Assembly: GCA_016927245.1 (NCBI GenBank)
Contig: JAFGNA010000011.1
Span: 29,330-93,329 of the forward strand
DNA: 64,000 bases
Source of the DNA: Candidatus Woesearchaeota archaeon
GTDB taxonomy: Archaea; Nanobdellota; Nanobdellia; Woesearchaeales; WJKR01
Direction: 5' to 3'
Made by a program: the position numbers and the translations under genes. This document shows positions 59,271 to 64,000 of this stretch, in pieces (the stretch's first letter is position 1; every line of letters begins with the position of its first letter). Below the pieces are notes generated by a model. It had not been told where the DNA came from. It saw nothing but the letters and a program-made list of their open reading frames with translations, and did no database searches.

Positions 59271-60809
59271 TCACGAGCAGCCCACGCGCTGCCGGCTCAC
59301 CACGACGTTATCAAGGTACACATGGATAGGCGTCAAGCCGAAGTCGCCATCATAATAACCACCAAGCTTCAAGTAGTCAAGCTTGCCACCGTCCCCGACC
59401 ACCACTCCTGACTGATCATACACGCCTACGTCATCCACCCACAACCGCACCGCGCCGTTCGCCGCGCCGTCATCGTTCGCGAGCACCTCCTGCTCGATAC
59501 AGTACCAATGACCGTTATCCAACACCCTACTCGTCACCTGCTCAGAACCATCAACGACCAGAGACAGCCGACCCTTGGCATCATCGCCCTGCCACCTCCT
59601 GATAAGCAGCTCGACCCCCCAATCATTCTCCTCCCCGAACAGGAACAAGCTCAGCCCATCCACGGGGTGGATGAAGTCCTCCTCGAAATACACGTAGTAC
59701 CGGAGGAACAAGTCACGACTCTCGGCCAGCGCGGTGTCAGCGTACTGGTCCTTCTTCAAGGAAGTGCTGCCCGACATGTAAATCAAGTCGAGCCCGTACT
59801 GGCCGCTGTACGGCATGTCCTGATTCACTTTCGAATTAGGGTTGAGGTAGTCCCACGTGTTCGCCGTGCCGCTCTCGAAGCCATCATAGAAGATGACTTC
59901 AGGGGTGCCACAAGCCGCGTACTGGAACGTGTTATCGCAACAATACCCCTCATACCTGCTCGTGCCGCCGCACACACACCCCGTTCCCGGGATAGATCCC
60001 TCCCCGCACTGATCGCACTCCAAGTCCTGCCCATCGCAGTCCTGGTCCTTGCCATCACCACACACCTCCGTGGCCGCGGGATGGACCTTGCTGTCGCTGT
60101 CATCGCAATCGTTCGCGAGGAGGTAGCCGTCCAAGTCGAGGTCATCATCCCTCGTCGTCTCATCGCAATCATCATCGACGCCATTGTACGGCACCTCCGC
60201 CATCCCAGGATTGACGCTCGCATCGTCATCGTCGCAATCAAGCTCGGAGAAGATGCAGTCAACGCTGTTCGTCACGCCGTACAAGTCACCATCGCTGTCA
60301 GGACAAACCACCAGGGCCTCGCTCTCCAGGTCAACGCCCTGCACGTGCCAGTAGCCGCAATCAGCAGGCTCCTTGCACCCGCACCTCCACTCATCATCCA
60401 CGCCCTTGCACACCCACGCACCGATATAGAAATCATCCCCTTCCCGCAGCGTGAACGAGGCGTACTCTCCCTCTATCGTTATGGCCGCGCTGCCGCCCAA
60501 CCACTCATCCCCTGGGAGGACTGCTCGTCGCCAGCCGCCTGCAGTGTAGTAATAGAGATGGTGATAAATCATGCCGTTCGCCTCGGCGATAGCGACGTCC
60601 ACCTCGAATGATTCAGCATCTGATTGGCGGTGTGTGAGGGAGATGATCTTCTGCCCGGTGAACGCGTCATAGGGAGGAGCGAACTGATCAGTGTCCTCTG
60701 ACTGCAGCACCGCGTGTCCGGTCAGCGACGGCCCCGCCTCGATGAGGAAGAGGAGTGCCACGAACAGGAAGGCCCACTGCCAGTACAGGATCCGCGCAAC
60801 TCGTTGCAT
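59271..60809 (-). CDS. Secreted protein with MopE-type putative metal-binding Cys/Asp repeats and a C-terminal jelly-roll (lectin/lyase-like) domain
   Basis: Signal peptide MQRVARILYWQWAFLFVALLFLIEAG. Repeats CPDSDGDLYG..., DCDDSDSKVHPAATEVCGDGKDQDCDGQD match the C-x-D-x-D...C-D-G-x-D-x-D-C-D-G motif. Beta-rich C-terminal 200 aa. Confidence 0.6.
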   Translation of the reverse strand: MQRVARILYWQWAFLFVALLFLIEAGPSLTGHAVLQSEDTDQFAPPYDAFTGQKIISLTHRQSDAESFEVDVAIAEANGMIYHHLYYYTAGGWRRAVLPGDEWLGGSAAITIEGEYASFTLREGDDFYIGAWVCKGVDDEWRCGCKEPADCGYWHVQGVDLESEALVVCPDSDGDLYGVTNSVDCIFSELDCDDDDASVNPGMAEVPYNGVDDDCDETTRDDDLDLDGYLLANDCDDSDSKVHPAATEVCGDGKDQDCDGQDLECDQCGEGSIPGTGCVCGGTSRYEGYCCDNTFQYAACGTPEVIFYDGFESGTANTWDYLNPNSKVNQDMPYSGQYGLDLIYMSGSTSLKKDQYADTALAESRDLFLRYYVYFEEDFIHPVDGLSLFLFGEENDWGVELLIRRWQGDDAKGRLSLVVDGSEQVTSRVLDNGHWYCIEQEVLANDDGAANGAVRLWVDDVGVYDQSGVVVGDGGKLDYLKLGGYYDGDFGLTPIHVYLDNVVVSRQRVGCS

Positions 60810-60851: not shown

Positions 60852-61661
60852 TCACTTGACCTTGACGGGCTTCATGCTCTTCCAGCCGAGCTCGAACAAT
60901 TGTTCCAGCGCCGCTGCGAAGAACGGCGTGTTGATCCAGATGCCGATGTCATACGTCGGGTGCACATCCTCGTCATCCATGACCATGAACACCAACTCCT
61001 TGCCGTCAACGACGACGAACCGGGCCTTGGTCAGCGTGTTACGCACCTCTGCCACGTCCTCGAGGTCCTTGGCCACGTCCTCGGTGTCCTTGTTCATCGG
61101 CGCGGCGATGCGTATCTTGACGCCGCGCTTCTTGAGCTGATCGAACACCGGCTTGAACCCCTCGACCTTGCGCAAGAATCCCTGACTGGTCGTCATGATG
61201 GTGACCGTCTCTTCAGCGTTCCTGATGGTGAGTTCAAGATGGTTGTACAAGTTGTGCCTGCCTCGAAGGCTGCCGGACAGGTCGCTCGGCTCCACGAGCT
61301 CGACGCCTTGCGTGTGCAGTGAGTTGAGCTCGCCGATGACATCCGTGCCCTTGAGCTCCTCCAGCTTCTTCACCTGTTCGTCAGCATCCTCCTTGACGTG
61401 CTTCTTCACACGCTCCAGGACCTCCTTCGGCGACACCGCGATGTACTTGATGGGCTTGCCGAGCTTCATGATGACGAAACCCTTCTTCTCCAATGATTCC
61501 AGGACGTCATAGGACCTGGACCGCGGCACATTCGCGATGTCAGAAAGCTCGCCCGCCGTGCTGACGCCTCGCGAGAGCAACGCAGTCCATATCTTGACCT
61601 CGTACAAGTTCAGCGAAAAATACCTACGCAGCTTGGTCAGAAACTCTTCTTTCACTATCAT
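60852..61661 (-). CDS. trmB: TrmB-family transcriptional regulator (paralog 2)
   Basis: About 65% identical to 33350-34153 over the full length (LNLYEVKIWTALLSRGVSTAGELSDIANVPRSRSYDVLESLEKKGF...). Confidence 0.85.
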   Translation of the reverse strand: MIVKEEFLTKLRRYFSLNLYEVKIWTALLSRGVSTAGELSDIANVPRSRSYDVLESLEKKGFVIMKLGKPIKYIAVSPKEVLERVKKHVKEDADEQVKKLEELKGTDVIGELNSLHTQGVELVEPSDLSGSLRGRHNLYNHLELTIRNAEETVTIMTTSQGFLRKVEGFKPVFDQLKKRGVKIRIAAPMNKDTEDVAKDLEDVAEVRNTLTKARFVVVDGKELVFMVMDDEDVHPTYDIGIWINTPFFAAALEQLFELGWKSMKPVKVK

Positions 61662-61826
61662 TGCTCACTACCCCCCACTCAAGGGACGTATTCACCCCTT
61701 TTTAATGCAGACTAGTTTCCACTACTATAAATATGTTACGATTTTTTTTCATCGTGCAATGGTATATCTCATTCGTCATAAGATAAAAGTGAAATCACGC
61801 GAGAAACCTTCCTGCTTTTGCAGACA

Positions 61827-62672
61827 TCATCGTGAGAGCTCGTAGAACTCCTCGTCACCGAAGACGAACCTGTCCCACCCAGCCCTTTTTTCCTTGAGGA
61901 AGCGCGTGAACCAGTTGTCCTCGTTGCCAGTCCTAAACGACCGGCCGCCGATGCTCCTCGTGGAGAAGCTGATGATAATCCTACGCACCCACTTGTTCCC
62001 CAGCAAGGCCTCGATGACCTTCTTGGACAGGTCCCGCTCCTGTGATTCCAGCGTGTCCACGAGCTTGAGCAGCAACGCGGTGTCGGCCCTTGTCCTCTTG
62101 AGCCGTTCCCTCGCCGCTTCTCGTGAGAGGTCGCAGACGTACGCCTCGCCGTCGATGCTCTGCTGCTCGAAGAACGACCGCACGAACGCCATGTCCTCCT
62201 CGCTGACATCGCAGCACGTGTACGCCGGCTTGCCAGGCAGCCACCGGTACGCGAGGGGGTTCATCCCGCACCCGATATCAAGGACGCGCCGCGGCGGGTC
62301 GCGCGCGAACAGCCGTCCGTATAACTCTCGGTAATGGTCCTGCCGCTCACCAGTGGACTTGTGGGTGTTGAGGAGCTGACCGATGATGCGCCGCTCCTCG
62401 TCAACGCCATGAGCCGCTCCCAGACGGACGAGGAGCTGCTCGCGCTTCTCATTGCTGGAATTCTGGAACACGCCATAGATCTCGCGCAGCTCCGCCCTGA
62501 CCTCCTTGACCGACCGGCGATACTCCCTCGACTTCTCATTGTAACCATTGTCCTCGAGTGCTTTTGCCGTCTTCTCGTGGCGGTCGAGATAGGCCTGCAC
62601 GTGCCTCTCGACGAATGCGTCCGGGAGCGATGAAAGCTCTTTCTTGTCCTTGACGCTCTCAGCGAGTTTCAT
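61827..62672 (-). CDS. Class I SAM-dependent methyltransferase of the FmrO / ArmA-Rmt family (16S rRNA m7G1405 MTase homolog)
   Basis: VLDIGCGMNPLAYRW (motif I). C-terminal ALLLKLVDTLESQERDL...IISFSTRSIGGRSFRTG closely parallels RmtB/ArmA ALIFKLLPLLEREQAG...AVSFPTRSLGGRGKGME. Start MKLAESV at 62672. Confidence 0.55.
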   Translation of the reverse strand: MKLAESVKDKKELSSLPDAFVERHVQAYLDRHEKTAKALEDNGYNEKSREYRRSVKEVRAELREIYGVFQNSSNEKREQLLVRLGAAHGVDEERRIIGQLLNTHKSTGERQDHYRELYGRLFARDPPRRVLDIGCGMNPLAYRWLPGKPAYTCCDVSEEDMAFVRSFFEQQSIDGEAYVCDLSREAARERLKRTRADTALLLKLVDTLESQERDLSKKVIEALLGNKWVRRIIISFSTRSIGGRSFRTGNEDNWFTRFLKEKRAGWDRFVFGDEEFYELSR

Positions 62673-62980
62673 GCGGCGACCATCGCCTTGAGTAGCCGTG
62701 GAAAGAATATGACGATGATGATGAGCACGAAGAACCCCCACAATGCCAAGGCCATCATGATGTCCGCTCGTTGCCGCGTGCGTTCCAAGCAGTACTCCAT
62801 CCTGTTAGCCTTTCCAAGCCCTGATATCATCAAGATGGTCGCTGCGGCGATGATGGAGAGGCCGACGATGATGAGCTTGCCAGCGGAGGGGTCGCCATAG
62901 ATGTCCATCATCAAAGGGACGAGTATGAGGGCGAGGATGCCGATGACCATGGTGGCCGTGACAAGCCTGTCTGCTCCCAT
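62669..62980 (-). CDS. Small membrane protein (3 TM), translationally coupled upstream of the MTase gene
   Basis: 103 aa hydrophobic. Stop overlaps the MTase ATG (ATGA). Confidence 0.4.
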   Translation of the reverse strand: MGADRLVTATMVIGILALILVPLMMDIYGDPSAGKLIIVGLSIIAAATILMISGLGKANRMEYCLERTRQRADIMMALALWGFFVLIIIVIFFPRLLKAMVAA

Positions 62981-62984
62981 ATGC

Positions 62985-64000
62985 CTACCACCTCCGTAGC
63001 CCAGCGATGCCTCCTAGGCCGTCCAGCTGCTTCATCGATTCCTTGCTCGCGACGATGGTTATTAAGGCTTTCCCTTGCTCGGCTGCCTTCATGACCTGCT
63101 CTACCCGTACGAAGTCCCCTCGCTCCCGCTCCTGCATCATGAAGGAGTCGCTCACCAGCAAAGTCTTGAGGCAACCCTCATTCGCCTTGCGTTCGACCTC
63201 GTCGATGCCGTAAGCCGCCTGGTCCTTCGCTACCGCTCCCAGCAGTTCCTGGACGAGCTGGTCCTCCTGCGCGCCCCGGTCCTCCCGCAATGCCTGCTTG
63301 ACCTCTGGTCTGCGGAGGAGTTCCTGCAATGACTGCTCATTCGTGCTTGACACCGTGGCGTACACGGCCTTCTTCGCCAAGTCCTCGGGCAGCGATTCCT
63401 TGAGGTAGTCCTTCCAGAAAGCCGGGCTCGCGGCGATGATGCTCCTCGGCTGGTAGCGCTGGTCGTACTCTGACGCTTGGCGAGCGATGGCCTTCCAGAA
63501 ATCGCTGACCGAGACGCCTTCCTCGCCCTTCTTCGACACCTCTCCCTTGATGCGGGAGAGGACGTCATGGCCGGTGTTGGTGAGCCTGCAGAACAACGCC
63601 TCTTCGCGGTCGAAGAGGACGACGATGATGTTCTCCTCGCTCCGCTCAGTGGCTTCTTGGAGCTTGTTGAGCTGCCACCCCTGCCATTCCTTGGTGATCA
63701 TGAGCTCATCGCCCGGCTGGATGGTGATGGCGTGATGGTCTCCTTTGGCGACTTCGTCAGGTCCGTCGGTGATAGTGCCGAGGACGCGGAGGGAGTCATG
63801 CTCGTACGTCGCCTTCTCTGCCCGGAGGGTGAGGGTCATCTTCTTCCTGACCACTTTCTGGTTGCGGTCGTCCTCTCCTCCCAGCTTGAGCTTGCGCTCC
63901 GTGCTGCCCTTGACGGCGTCGCCCGGCCCTATAAGCCTGCTGAGCAGCCAGAGGTCTTCTGGCGCGTCAGCCTTGACGTGGAGGAATCCTTCCTTGCGGT
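62985..64000 (-). CDS. pelA: Pelota (Dom34 homolog), N-terminus beyond the window edge
   Basis: Frame is open to position 64000. Upstream translation ...LHVKADAPEDLWLLSRLIGPGDAVKGSTERK matches the Pelota N-domain. C-terminal eRF1-like domain with LDGLGGIAGLLRW. Confidence 0.85.
   Translation of the reverse strand, partial: RKEGFLHVKADAPEDLWLLSRLIGPGDAVKGSTERKLKLGGEDDRNQKVVRKKMTLTLRAEKATYEHDSLRVLGTITDGPDEVAKGDHHAITIQPGDELMITKEWQGWQLNKLQEATERSEENIIVVLFDREEALFCRLTNTGHDVLSRIKGEVSKKGEEGVSVSDFWKAIARQASEYDQRYQPRSIIAASPAFWKDYLKESLPEDLAKKAVYATVSSTNEQSLQELLRRPEVKQALREDRGAQEDQLVQELLGAVAKDQAAYGIDEVERKANEGCLKTLLVSDSFMMQERERGDFVRVEQVMKAAEQGKALITIVASKESMKQLDGLGGIAGLRRW

Follow-up and report, generated by a model that had tools for sequence, protein, structure and literature searches.

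An Arm/FmrO-family methyltransferase gene next to Pelota in a Woesearchaeota genome, probably a native small-subunit rRNA modification enzyme

We analysed a 64,000-nt stretch of contig JAFGNA010000011.1 (assembly GCA_016927245.1) of a Candidatus Woesearchaeota archaeon, hereafter the window, focusing on a minus-strand gene at 61827..62672 for a predicted FmrO/Arm-family S-adenosyl-L-methionine (SAM)-dependent rRNA methyltransferase of 281 aa plus stop. Its open reading frame (ORF), as read from the sequence, runs from an ATG at 62672 (62672-62670) to a stop codon at 61829-61827, and the 281-aa translation is identical in sequence to JXA12_02965, an NCBI protein from a Candidatus Woesearchaeota metagenome-assembled genome (MAG). 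A GTG start at 62741, which would give 304 aa, was considered and rejected: the ATG at 62672 was preferred because the homologs and JXA12_02965 share that start, and this ATG overlaps, as ATGA, the TGA stop of the upstream ORF. The latter (62669..62980, minus strand) encodes a hydrophobic, predicted membrane protein of 103 aa, and the stop codon of the gene for Pelota (aPelota/Dom34; 62985..64000, minus strand, with its 5′ end past the window edge) lies 4 nt ahead of it. On the other side, an A+T-rich spacer of 165 nt (61662..61826) separates the methyltransferase stop codon from a gene for a TrmB-family transcription regulator (60852..61661, minus strand). The co-orientation with Pelota and a small membrane protein, and the TrmB-family gene downstream, both noted in a preliminary description of this DNA, were thus confirmed, and Pelota and the methyltransferase are likely co-transcribed.

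The protein is almost certainly an Arm/FmrO-family SAM-dependent methyltransferase. The Pfam FmrO profile (PF07091), proposed as a check in the preliminary description, matched with 74.6 bits (E = 1.1e-20) against a cut-off of 27, and the generic class I methyltransferase models of Pfam reached 14-19 bits, under their cut-offs. Sequence matches in the PDB were to Sgm (E = 1e-19), RmtF (1e-15), RmtB (2e-13), ArmA (1e-9) and RmtC (2e-9); down to E = 2e-9 the search returned only enzymes that methylate N7 of guanine 1405 in 16S rRNA (m7G1405), the next family appearing at E = 0.27. An AlphaFold2 (AF2) model built with 16 archaeal homologs was of high confidence (predicted local distance difference test, pLDDT, 92.3; predicted template modelling score, pTM, 0.87). 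When it was compared with the PDB by Foldseek, the top 14 matches were all m7G1405 methyltransferases (Sgm, RmtF, RmtC, RmtB and ArmA; E from 1e-18 to 3e-11), and the match to Sgm gave template modelling (TM) scores of 0.77/0.83 over about 286 columns, spanning both domains. Unrelated Rossmann methyltransferases followed as the next fold, at E about 1e-8 and with TM near 0.4. The similarity is therefore not the motif I resemblance of a different methyltransferase family, as it extends over both domains.

In the AF2 model, an N-terminal helical domain of about aa 1-100 (62373..62672), predicted to dock on the 30S subunit, comprises helices at residues 2-7, 18-31, 33-41, 49-65, 74-85 and 90-101. 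The C-terminal domain, about aa 101-281 (61830..62372), is a predicted Rossmann-fold catalytic domain by strand order and secondary structure. This modelled architecture, helical N-terminal plus class I Rossmann C-terminal with two additional helices at the N-terminal side of the latter, agrees with the description of Sgm. Before the HxSTxER motif there are 103 residues in the window protein and 104 in RmtC, compared with 80-88 in ArmA, RmtB and RmtF, the N-terminal domains of which are shorter by about 15-23 residues. The homology to the FmrO/ArmA/Rmt family claimed in the preliminary description thus holds by profile, PDB matches and fold, but does not extend to the Rmt equivalog: the top NCBIfam model, the Rmt-family 16S rRNA (guanine(1405)-N(7))-methyltransferase NF000466, scored 129.6 bits against an equivalog cut-off of 250, and therefore the name 'Rmt resistance enzyme' is not warranted. 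The specific NCBIfam models for RmtB-H scored 35-57 bits against cut-offs of 500-550. Some relatives carry the label 16S rRNA (guanine1405-N7)-methyltransferase from the IMG pipelines.

To describe residue conservation, we counted residues over 153 sequences (the protein of the window and 152 representatives of the archaeal-type group, with overall identities of about 30-55%), aligned with ArmA, RmtB, RmtC and RmtF from resistance plasmids. Motif I, LDIGCGMNP (aa 131-139; 62256..62282), aligns with the SAM-binding loop, with D132 found in 152 sequences, G136 in 153, N138 in 152 and P139 in 149. In the motif H104-x-S106-T107-x-E109-R110, S106, E109 and R110 were invariant (153/153 each), and H104 occurred in 152/153; by alignment, R110 corresponds to Sgm R108, T107 to Sgm T105 and S106 to RmtC S107. 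D155 (Sgm D156, RmtC D160) is D or E in 152/153, and D181 (Sgm D182) is D in 130 and N in 22. The SAM-binding residues T107, R110, D155, D181 and S106 are thus conserved in 122-153 of the 153 sequences, with D/E or D/N variation at two of them. The alanine substitutions R108A, D156A and D182A of Sgm abolished SAM binding (PMC2896518). Residues that handle the target guanine in RmtC are likewise represented. K203 (codon 62064..62066), present as K in 152/153, aligns with RmtC K204, which contacts N7 of the flipped G1405, and F69, an aromatic F or Y in 152/153, occupies the position of RmtC Y60, which provides aromatic stacking on G1405; K204A and Y60A each abolished RmtC activity (PMC10288597).

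This conservation bears on the possibility that the gene is a degenerate, non-catalytic relic, or encodes a ribosome-binding factor that has lost methylation. Apart from the missed equivalog cut-off, nothing specific was found in its favour. We rejected such a relic as highly improbable because the active-site residues are conserved: SAM-binding and catalytic residues are retained in essentially all 153 relatives despite the low overall identity. In addition, the ORF is intact and tightly packed in an operon, and its fold is predicted with confidence.

The family proved to be widespread. A HMMER search covering 1.84 billion cluster representatives yielded 1303 clusters (50% identity) at E <= 1e-3, 700 at E <= 1e-10 and 63 at E <= 1e-30, and a scan of one genome per GTDB species identified a relative in at least 369 species genomes. 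The best 80 of these 369 genomes, on which all neighbourhood counts below are based, are MAGs labelled Woesearchaeota, Nanoarchaeota, Nanoarchaeia or Pacearchaeota, or bear generic or placeholder labels; Woesearchaeota are placed in Nanoarchaeota by GTDB. The placeholder labels include 'uncultured archaeon' and, for third-party (TPA) assemblies, 'uncultured Methanosarcinales'. The many TPA_asm loci with the Methanosarcinales label include L012, L020, L021, L023 and L026, and at least L012 has the Woesearchaeota-type synteny Pelota-FmrO-TrmB-PheRS (phenylalanyl-tRNA synthetase). The label on these loci looks like a placeholder or an error, and gives no evidence for the gene in Methanosarcinales.

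Gene order around the methyltransferase recurs in this set. In 28 of the 80 loci, Pelota is the immediate upstream neighbour and has the same orientation; over half of these 28 have the two genes overlapping or at most 21 nt apart. The contigs of the homologs P0002, P0003, P0010, P0013 and P0015 show the same placement, at identities down to 30%. Nine of the 80 loci, as well as the contig of P0016, have upstream a gene for a two-KH-domain protein of the Pno1/KRR1/Dim2 type, mostly preceded by aIF1A. This order of aIF1A, KH protein and FmrO homolog is seen at L009:1482-3137, with the KH and FmrO genes overlapping, and in L017, L029, L041-L043, L049 and L079; topoisomerase VI subunit B sometimes comes next. 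Downstream, a TrmB-family gene was present in 18-26 of the 80 loci. Other neighbours encode a MiaB-like radical-SAM enzyme, an RsmB/F-type m5C methyltransferase, a tRNA-binding-domain protein and a TP_methylase-family protein that, as judged from its sequence, is probably diphthine synthase.

The methyltransferase also appears to have diverged together with Pelota. Over the 28 Pelota-linked loci, the pairwise identities of the two proteins were correlated (Mantel r = 0.77, with none of 2000 permutations as high), and the mean pairwise identities were similar, at 39% for the methyltransferase and 41% for Pelota. In a rough neighbour-joining (NJ) tree, computed with no support values, the archaeal sequences formed one clade apart from RmtB, RmtC, RmtF and ArmA, and within this clade the Pelota-linked and the KH-linked genes each clustered, so that gene context tracks the tree. 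The GC content of the gene (0.57-0.64) is ordinary for the region (about 0.58 locally), and no transposase, integrase or other mobile-element genes were seen near it. Based on the distribution, synteny, co-divergence with Pelota, tree, GC content and absence of mobile genes, we consider it very likely an old, vertically transmitted gene under purifying selection that is native to the Woesearchaeota lineage.

These observations also bear on whether the gene is an aminoglycoside-resistance determinant, either horizontally acquired or kept for aminoglycosides met in sediments, with protection of the ribosome from 4,6-disubstituted deoxystreptamine (4,6-DOS) drugs as the selected trait. All characterised Arm/FmrO members confer resistance via m7G1405, the top database models are resistance enzymes, and resistance would follow automatically if the enzyme makes m7G1405. 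However, relatives occur in hundreds of species genomes, the best 80 of which all belong to one archaeal lineage, and the chromosomal position beside Pelota or aIF1A-KH is kept down to about 30% identity, together with the co-divergence with Pelota. The plasmid-borne armA, rmtB and rmtC adjoin insertion sequence (IS) and transposase genes, unlike the gene in the window, the GC content of which is normal. No aminocyclitol or aminoglycoside biosynthesis genes were found, either in the 5 kb on the readable flank or in those related loci that were inspected. Furthermore, aminoglycoside uptake needs respiratory membrane energisation, and a 2026 preprint argues on this ground that genes of this kind are unlikely to be resistance determinants in comparably reduced, fermentative bacteria of the candidate phyla radiation (CPR); by our own extension, the same argument may apply to DPANN archaea. 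We therefore regard selection for resistance as improbable. The preliminary description had offered a housekeeping modification and an acquired resistance determinant as alternatives; lineage-wide presence, synteny with translation genes, co-divergence with Pelota and the lack of mobile genes favour the former. Should the enzyme make m7G1405, its carriers would be insensitive to 4,6-DOS aminoglycosides, a side effect rather than the trait under selection.

We propose that the gene encodes a native, vertically inherited, two-domain SAM-dependent methyltransferase of the small-subunit rRNA belonging to the Arm/FmrO family, which is the explanation we consider probable. By analogy with RmtC, Sgm and RmtB, its substrate would be the 30S subunit, its target the equivalent of G1405 and its chemistry N7 methylation, making m7G at this position the probable product. 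G1405 is located within a universally conserved stretch of rRNA. In the proposed mechanism, the helical N-terminal domain would dock on the conserved surface formed by helices h24, h27, h44 and h45 of an assembled or late-stage 30S subunit, while the loop after SxGG[KR] and nearby residues of the C-terminal domain would distort h44 and flip out the guanine equivalent to G1405. F69 would then stack on the flipped guanine, and K203 would position its N7 for methyl transfer from SAM held by S106, T107, R110, D132, D155 and D181.

Part of the apparatus for h44/h45 recognition appears, by alignment, to be retained along with an intact catalytic core. R59 corresponds to RmtC R50, which contacts h45 (PMC10288597), and is R in 151/153; K56 corresponds to RmtC K47 and is K in 140/153. 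The loop at aa 238-253 (TRSIGGRSFRTGNEDN; 61914..61961) aligns with RmtC K236 and the adjoining loop 237-246, which distorts h44 and is disordered in free RmtC but ordered on the 30S subunit (PMC10288597). The least confident stretch of the AF2 model, residues 241-250 (pLDDT 59), coincides with this loop. R239 aligns with RmtC K236 and R244 with RmtC R241. A hydrophobic residue (I, M, L or F in 132/153) lies one alignment column from RmtC M245, and the alignment suggests that F246 is probably the counterpart in the window protein of the M245 hydrophobic wedge. According to the preliminary description, the C-terminal target-recognition region parallels RmtB/ArmA almost residue by residue. This is overstated: SFSTRSIGGR shares eight of ten residues with SFPTRSLGGR of RmtB, LLLKLVDTLESQERDL has only about five of 16 residues in common with RmtB, and the identity of the whole protein to ArmA, RmtB, RmtC and RmtF is 24-27%.

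Several observations weigh against the proposed function. The position of RmtC H54, a near-universal and essential residue (PMC10288597) that is His in all four reference enzymes, is occupied by R63 (Arg in 122/153, His in 20). RmtC K20 is replaced by E12 (Glu in 131/153), and RmtC Y21 by L13 (Leu or Phe in 142/153). The loop after GGR is one residue shorter and lacks the G-M-E motif that holds the essential Met245 of RmtC. The NF000466 score stays under the equivalog cut-off. Some linkage to translation genes is to be expected in genomes as small as those of DPANN archaea, and in about half of the 80 loci the neighbours are unrelated. The universal 1392-1407 rRNA motif was absent from the 94 fetched loci, and no rRNA gene was found in the window, where tRNA-Ala is the sole RNA gene. 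The literature searched contained no report of a native archaeal m7G at the G1405 position, and the function of archaeal family members is predicted from sequence.

The changed docking residues raise the possibility of an active Arm-family methyltransferase that has been retargeted to another guanine, to another site on the small subunit or pre-30S particle, or to another RNA. Consistent with this, archaeal 30S subunits have different proteins around h44/h45, the loop motif differs, and the clade-specific motif KLxD[ST]LE places an Asp (D206 in KLVDTLE) where the resistance enzymes have Pro or Thr; the low NF000466 score points the same way. Husain et al. left open whether the archaeal ortholog NEQ545 shares the Arm function, and a second methyltransferase domain is fused in some relatives. 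Set against these are the retention of the residues for the flipped guanine and SAM (K203, F69, S106, R110 and D155), the near invariance of R59 and K56, and the conserved hydrophobic loop residue adjoining the Met245 column. RmtF, a proven m7G1405 enzyme, likewise departs from RmtC at Y21 (Leu) and K20 (Asn), and the rRNA surface used by RmtC is highly conserved (PMC10288597). Retargeting is thus a rather unlikely alternative, though a weightier one than selection for resistance. Under the proposed m7G methyltransferase function, the changes in the loop and at the positions of H54, K20 and Y21 may represent an adaptation to the archaeal subunit; they could also be the mark of a shifted target.

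The fused relatives mentioned above are proteins of about 485 aa (P0023, P0035 and P0050) in which the FmrO-type enzyme is joined to a second class I methyltransferase domain (Methyltransf_11/25). P0023 is encoded on a 104,447-bp contig of Woesearchaeota UBA153 that appears to be the contig of L018 as well. For the second domain, we obtained generic class I matches only, with no specific family or solved relative that would reveal its substrate.

The recurrent neighbours may point to the same ribosomal site as the methyltransferase. Pelota and aIF1A occupy the A site over h44, and Pno1/Dim2 binds the 3′ end of the rRNA beside h45. Given how rich DPANN genomes are in translation genes, this association is no more than suggestive. 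Nevertheless, the placement beside Pelota or aIF1A/Pno1-like genes offers a concrete hypothesis on the timing and the site of the enzyme's action on the 30S subunit. Extending it further, we tentatively suggest that m7G at the G1405 equivalent, a modification known only in connection with antibiotic resistance, could be a constitutive, native mark of the decoding centre across Woesearchaeota/Nanoarchaeota, installed by an ancient archaeal Arm branch coupled to Pelota, aIF1A and Pno1/Dim2; on balance we hold this broader idea with less confidence than the assignment of the product itself. If it were true, the archaeal branch, and not the actinomycete producers, could be the deep reservoir of the Arm family, and Woesearchaeota/Nanoarchaeota would be intrinsically insensitive to 4,6-DOS aminoglycosides.

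Among known systems, the best solved relative by both sequence and fold is Sgm, the sisomicin-gentamicin resistance methylase of Micromonospora zionensis (PDB 3LCU/3LCV). The sequence match, with the E-value given above, covers residues 54-279, the Foldseek match reached E = 1e-18, and the PDB chain is 281 aa long; the two proteins share the helical N-terminal and Rossmann C-terminal domains and the equivalence of Sgm R108, D156 and D182 with R110, D155 and D181. In contrast, identity is about 26%, Arg63 of the window protein takes the place of the His that Sgm has at the H54 position, and S-F-R that of its G-M loop motif. Sgm provides an actinomycete producer with self-resistance, whereas the gene in the window belongs to a Pelota operon of an archaeon. 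The acquired enzymes RmtB, RmtC, RmtF and ArmA of pathogens (including RmtC as bound to the 30S subunit in the cryo-electron microscopy structure 8GHU) have the Pfam family and fold in common with the window protein, as well as the motifs HxSTxER, DxGCGxNP, FK(L) and SFPxxSxGG[KR] and the residues equivalent to RmtC K204, Y60, R50, D160 and S107. Their genes are carried on plasmids or transposons, whereas the archaeal relatives are chromosomal, syntenic and lineage-wide.

An archaeal member of the Arm family is not new in principle, since NEQ545 of Nanoarchaeum equitans was reported as the first archaeal Arm ortholog by Husain et al. in 2010, who described its catalytic-domain motifs as fully conserved, its helical N-terminal domain as diverged and its function as unclear (PMC2896518). 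Compared by this published description, NEQ545 resembles the window protein in being archaeal, chromosomal and from Nanoarchaeota/DPANN, and in combining conserved catalytic motifs with a diverged N-terminal domain. It is said to be without one N-terminal helix, in contrast to the long N-terminal domain of the window protein. The 2010 analysis derived NEQ545 from the pathogen group (PMC2896518), whereas our rough NJ tree contains a large separate archaeal clade. In the literature searched, we found nothing on the Arm/FmrO family in Woesearchaeota/DPANN beyond the 2010 paper and the 2026 CPR preprint, and no paper on the spread of the family across the lineage or on its synteny with Pelota or aIF1A-Pno1. 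The observation added here is that the Arm/FmrO family represents, in the Woesearchaeota/Nanoarchaeota radiation, a widespread gene with conserved synteny and an apparent housekeeping role. A large, vertically inherited archaeal branch would show resistance-type chemistry serving ordinary ribosome maturation. It bears on the origin of the clinically important 16S rRNA methyltransferases and on the effect of m7G1405 on decoding in the absence of the drug. Resistome surveys probably over-call when they score FmrO matches in DPANN genomes as resistance genes.

With respect to the remaining features of the locus, the Pelota ORF matched Pfam eRF1_1/2/3 and TIGR00111 (pelota; 169 bits, profile positions 58-349 matched). 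A truncated or frameshifted Pelota, considered for the 289-aa ORF, was rejected: the reading frame is open to base 63998 and the gene is cut by the window edge. The 103-aa membrane protein matched no Pfam or NCBIfam family above cut-off. A 98-aa ORF in the same place in locus L001 is 32% identical to it, and in loci L003 and L011 it is missing, Pelota there overlapping the methyltransferase gene directly. Such an ORF between Pelota and the methyltransferase was found only in the nearest relatives.

The spacer downstream of the methyltransferase gene, described from its base composition and motifs only, has a GC content of 0.50 compared with about 0.58 around it. It contains a T-run after a double stop, and ATATTTATAG about 60 nt ahead of the next ATG. 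It likely includes the end of the Pelota-membrane protein-methyltransferase unit and the promoter region of the TrmB-family gene, which probably has its own promoter. The TrmB-family protein matched Pfam TrmB (66 bits) and Regulator_TrmB (30 bits), and its best NCBIfam match, to the chromatin-associated TrmBL2, was far below the cut-off. Its mean pairwise identity was 75% over 23 loci, compared with 41% for Pelota and 39% for the methyltransferase. In the Woesearchaeota lineage it may act as a core chromatin or global regulator.

Beyond the TrmB-family gene lie a gene for a MopE-repeat secreted protein and then that for the PheRS alpha subunit. The former (59271-60809, minus strand) encodes 512 aa with an N-terminal hydrophobic segment and MopE-type putative metal-binding repeats (64 bits); its C-terminal region is weakly polysaccharide-lyase-like, and a syntenic gene is present in L001 and L003.

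A different arrangement was observed in a bacterial-looking locus, L096:368-8439 (GCA_030155325.1, JALYFQ010000319.1), which carries RsmI, Tgt and two tandem Rmt-like genes. The latter scored 233 and 165 bits against the cut-off of 250, and RsmI, the 16S C1402 2′-O-methyltransferase, scored above its cut-off. After a gap, genes follow for an IolG-like inositol dehydrogenase, a class III aminotransferase and an inositol monophosphatase. This locus could represent clustered intrinsic h44 methyltransferases or, by its aminocyclitol-like genes, a producer-type self-resistance locus.

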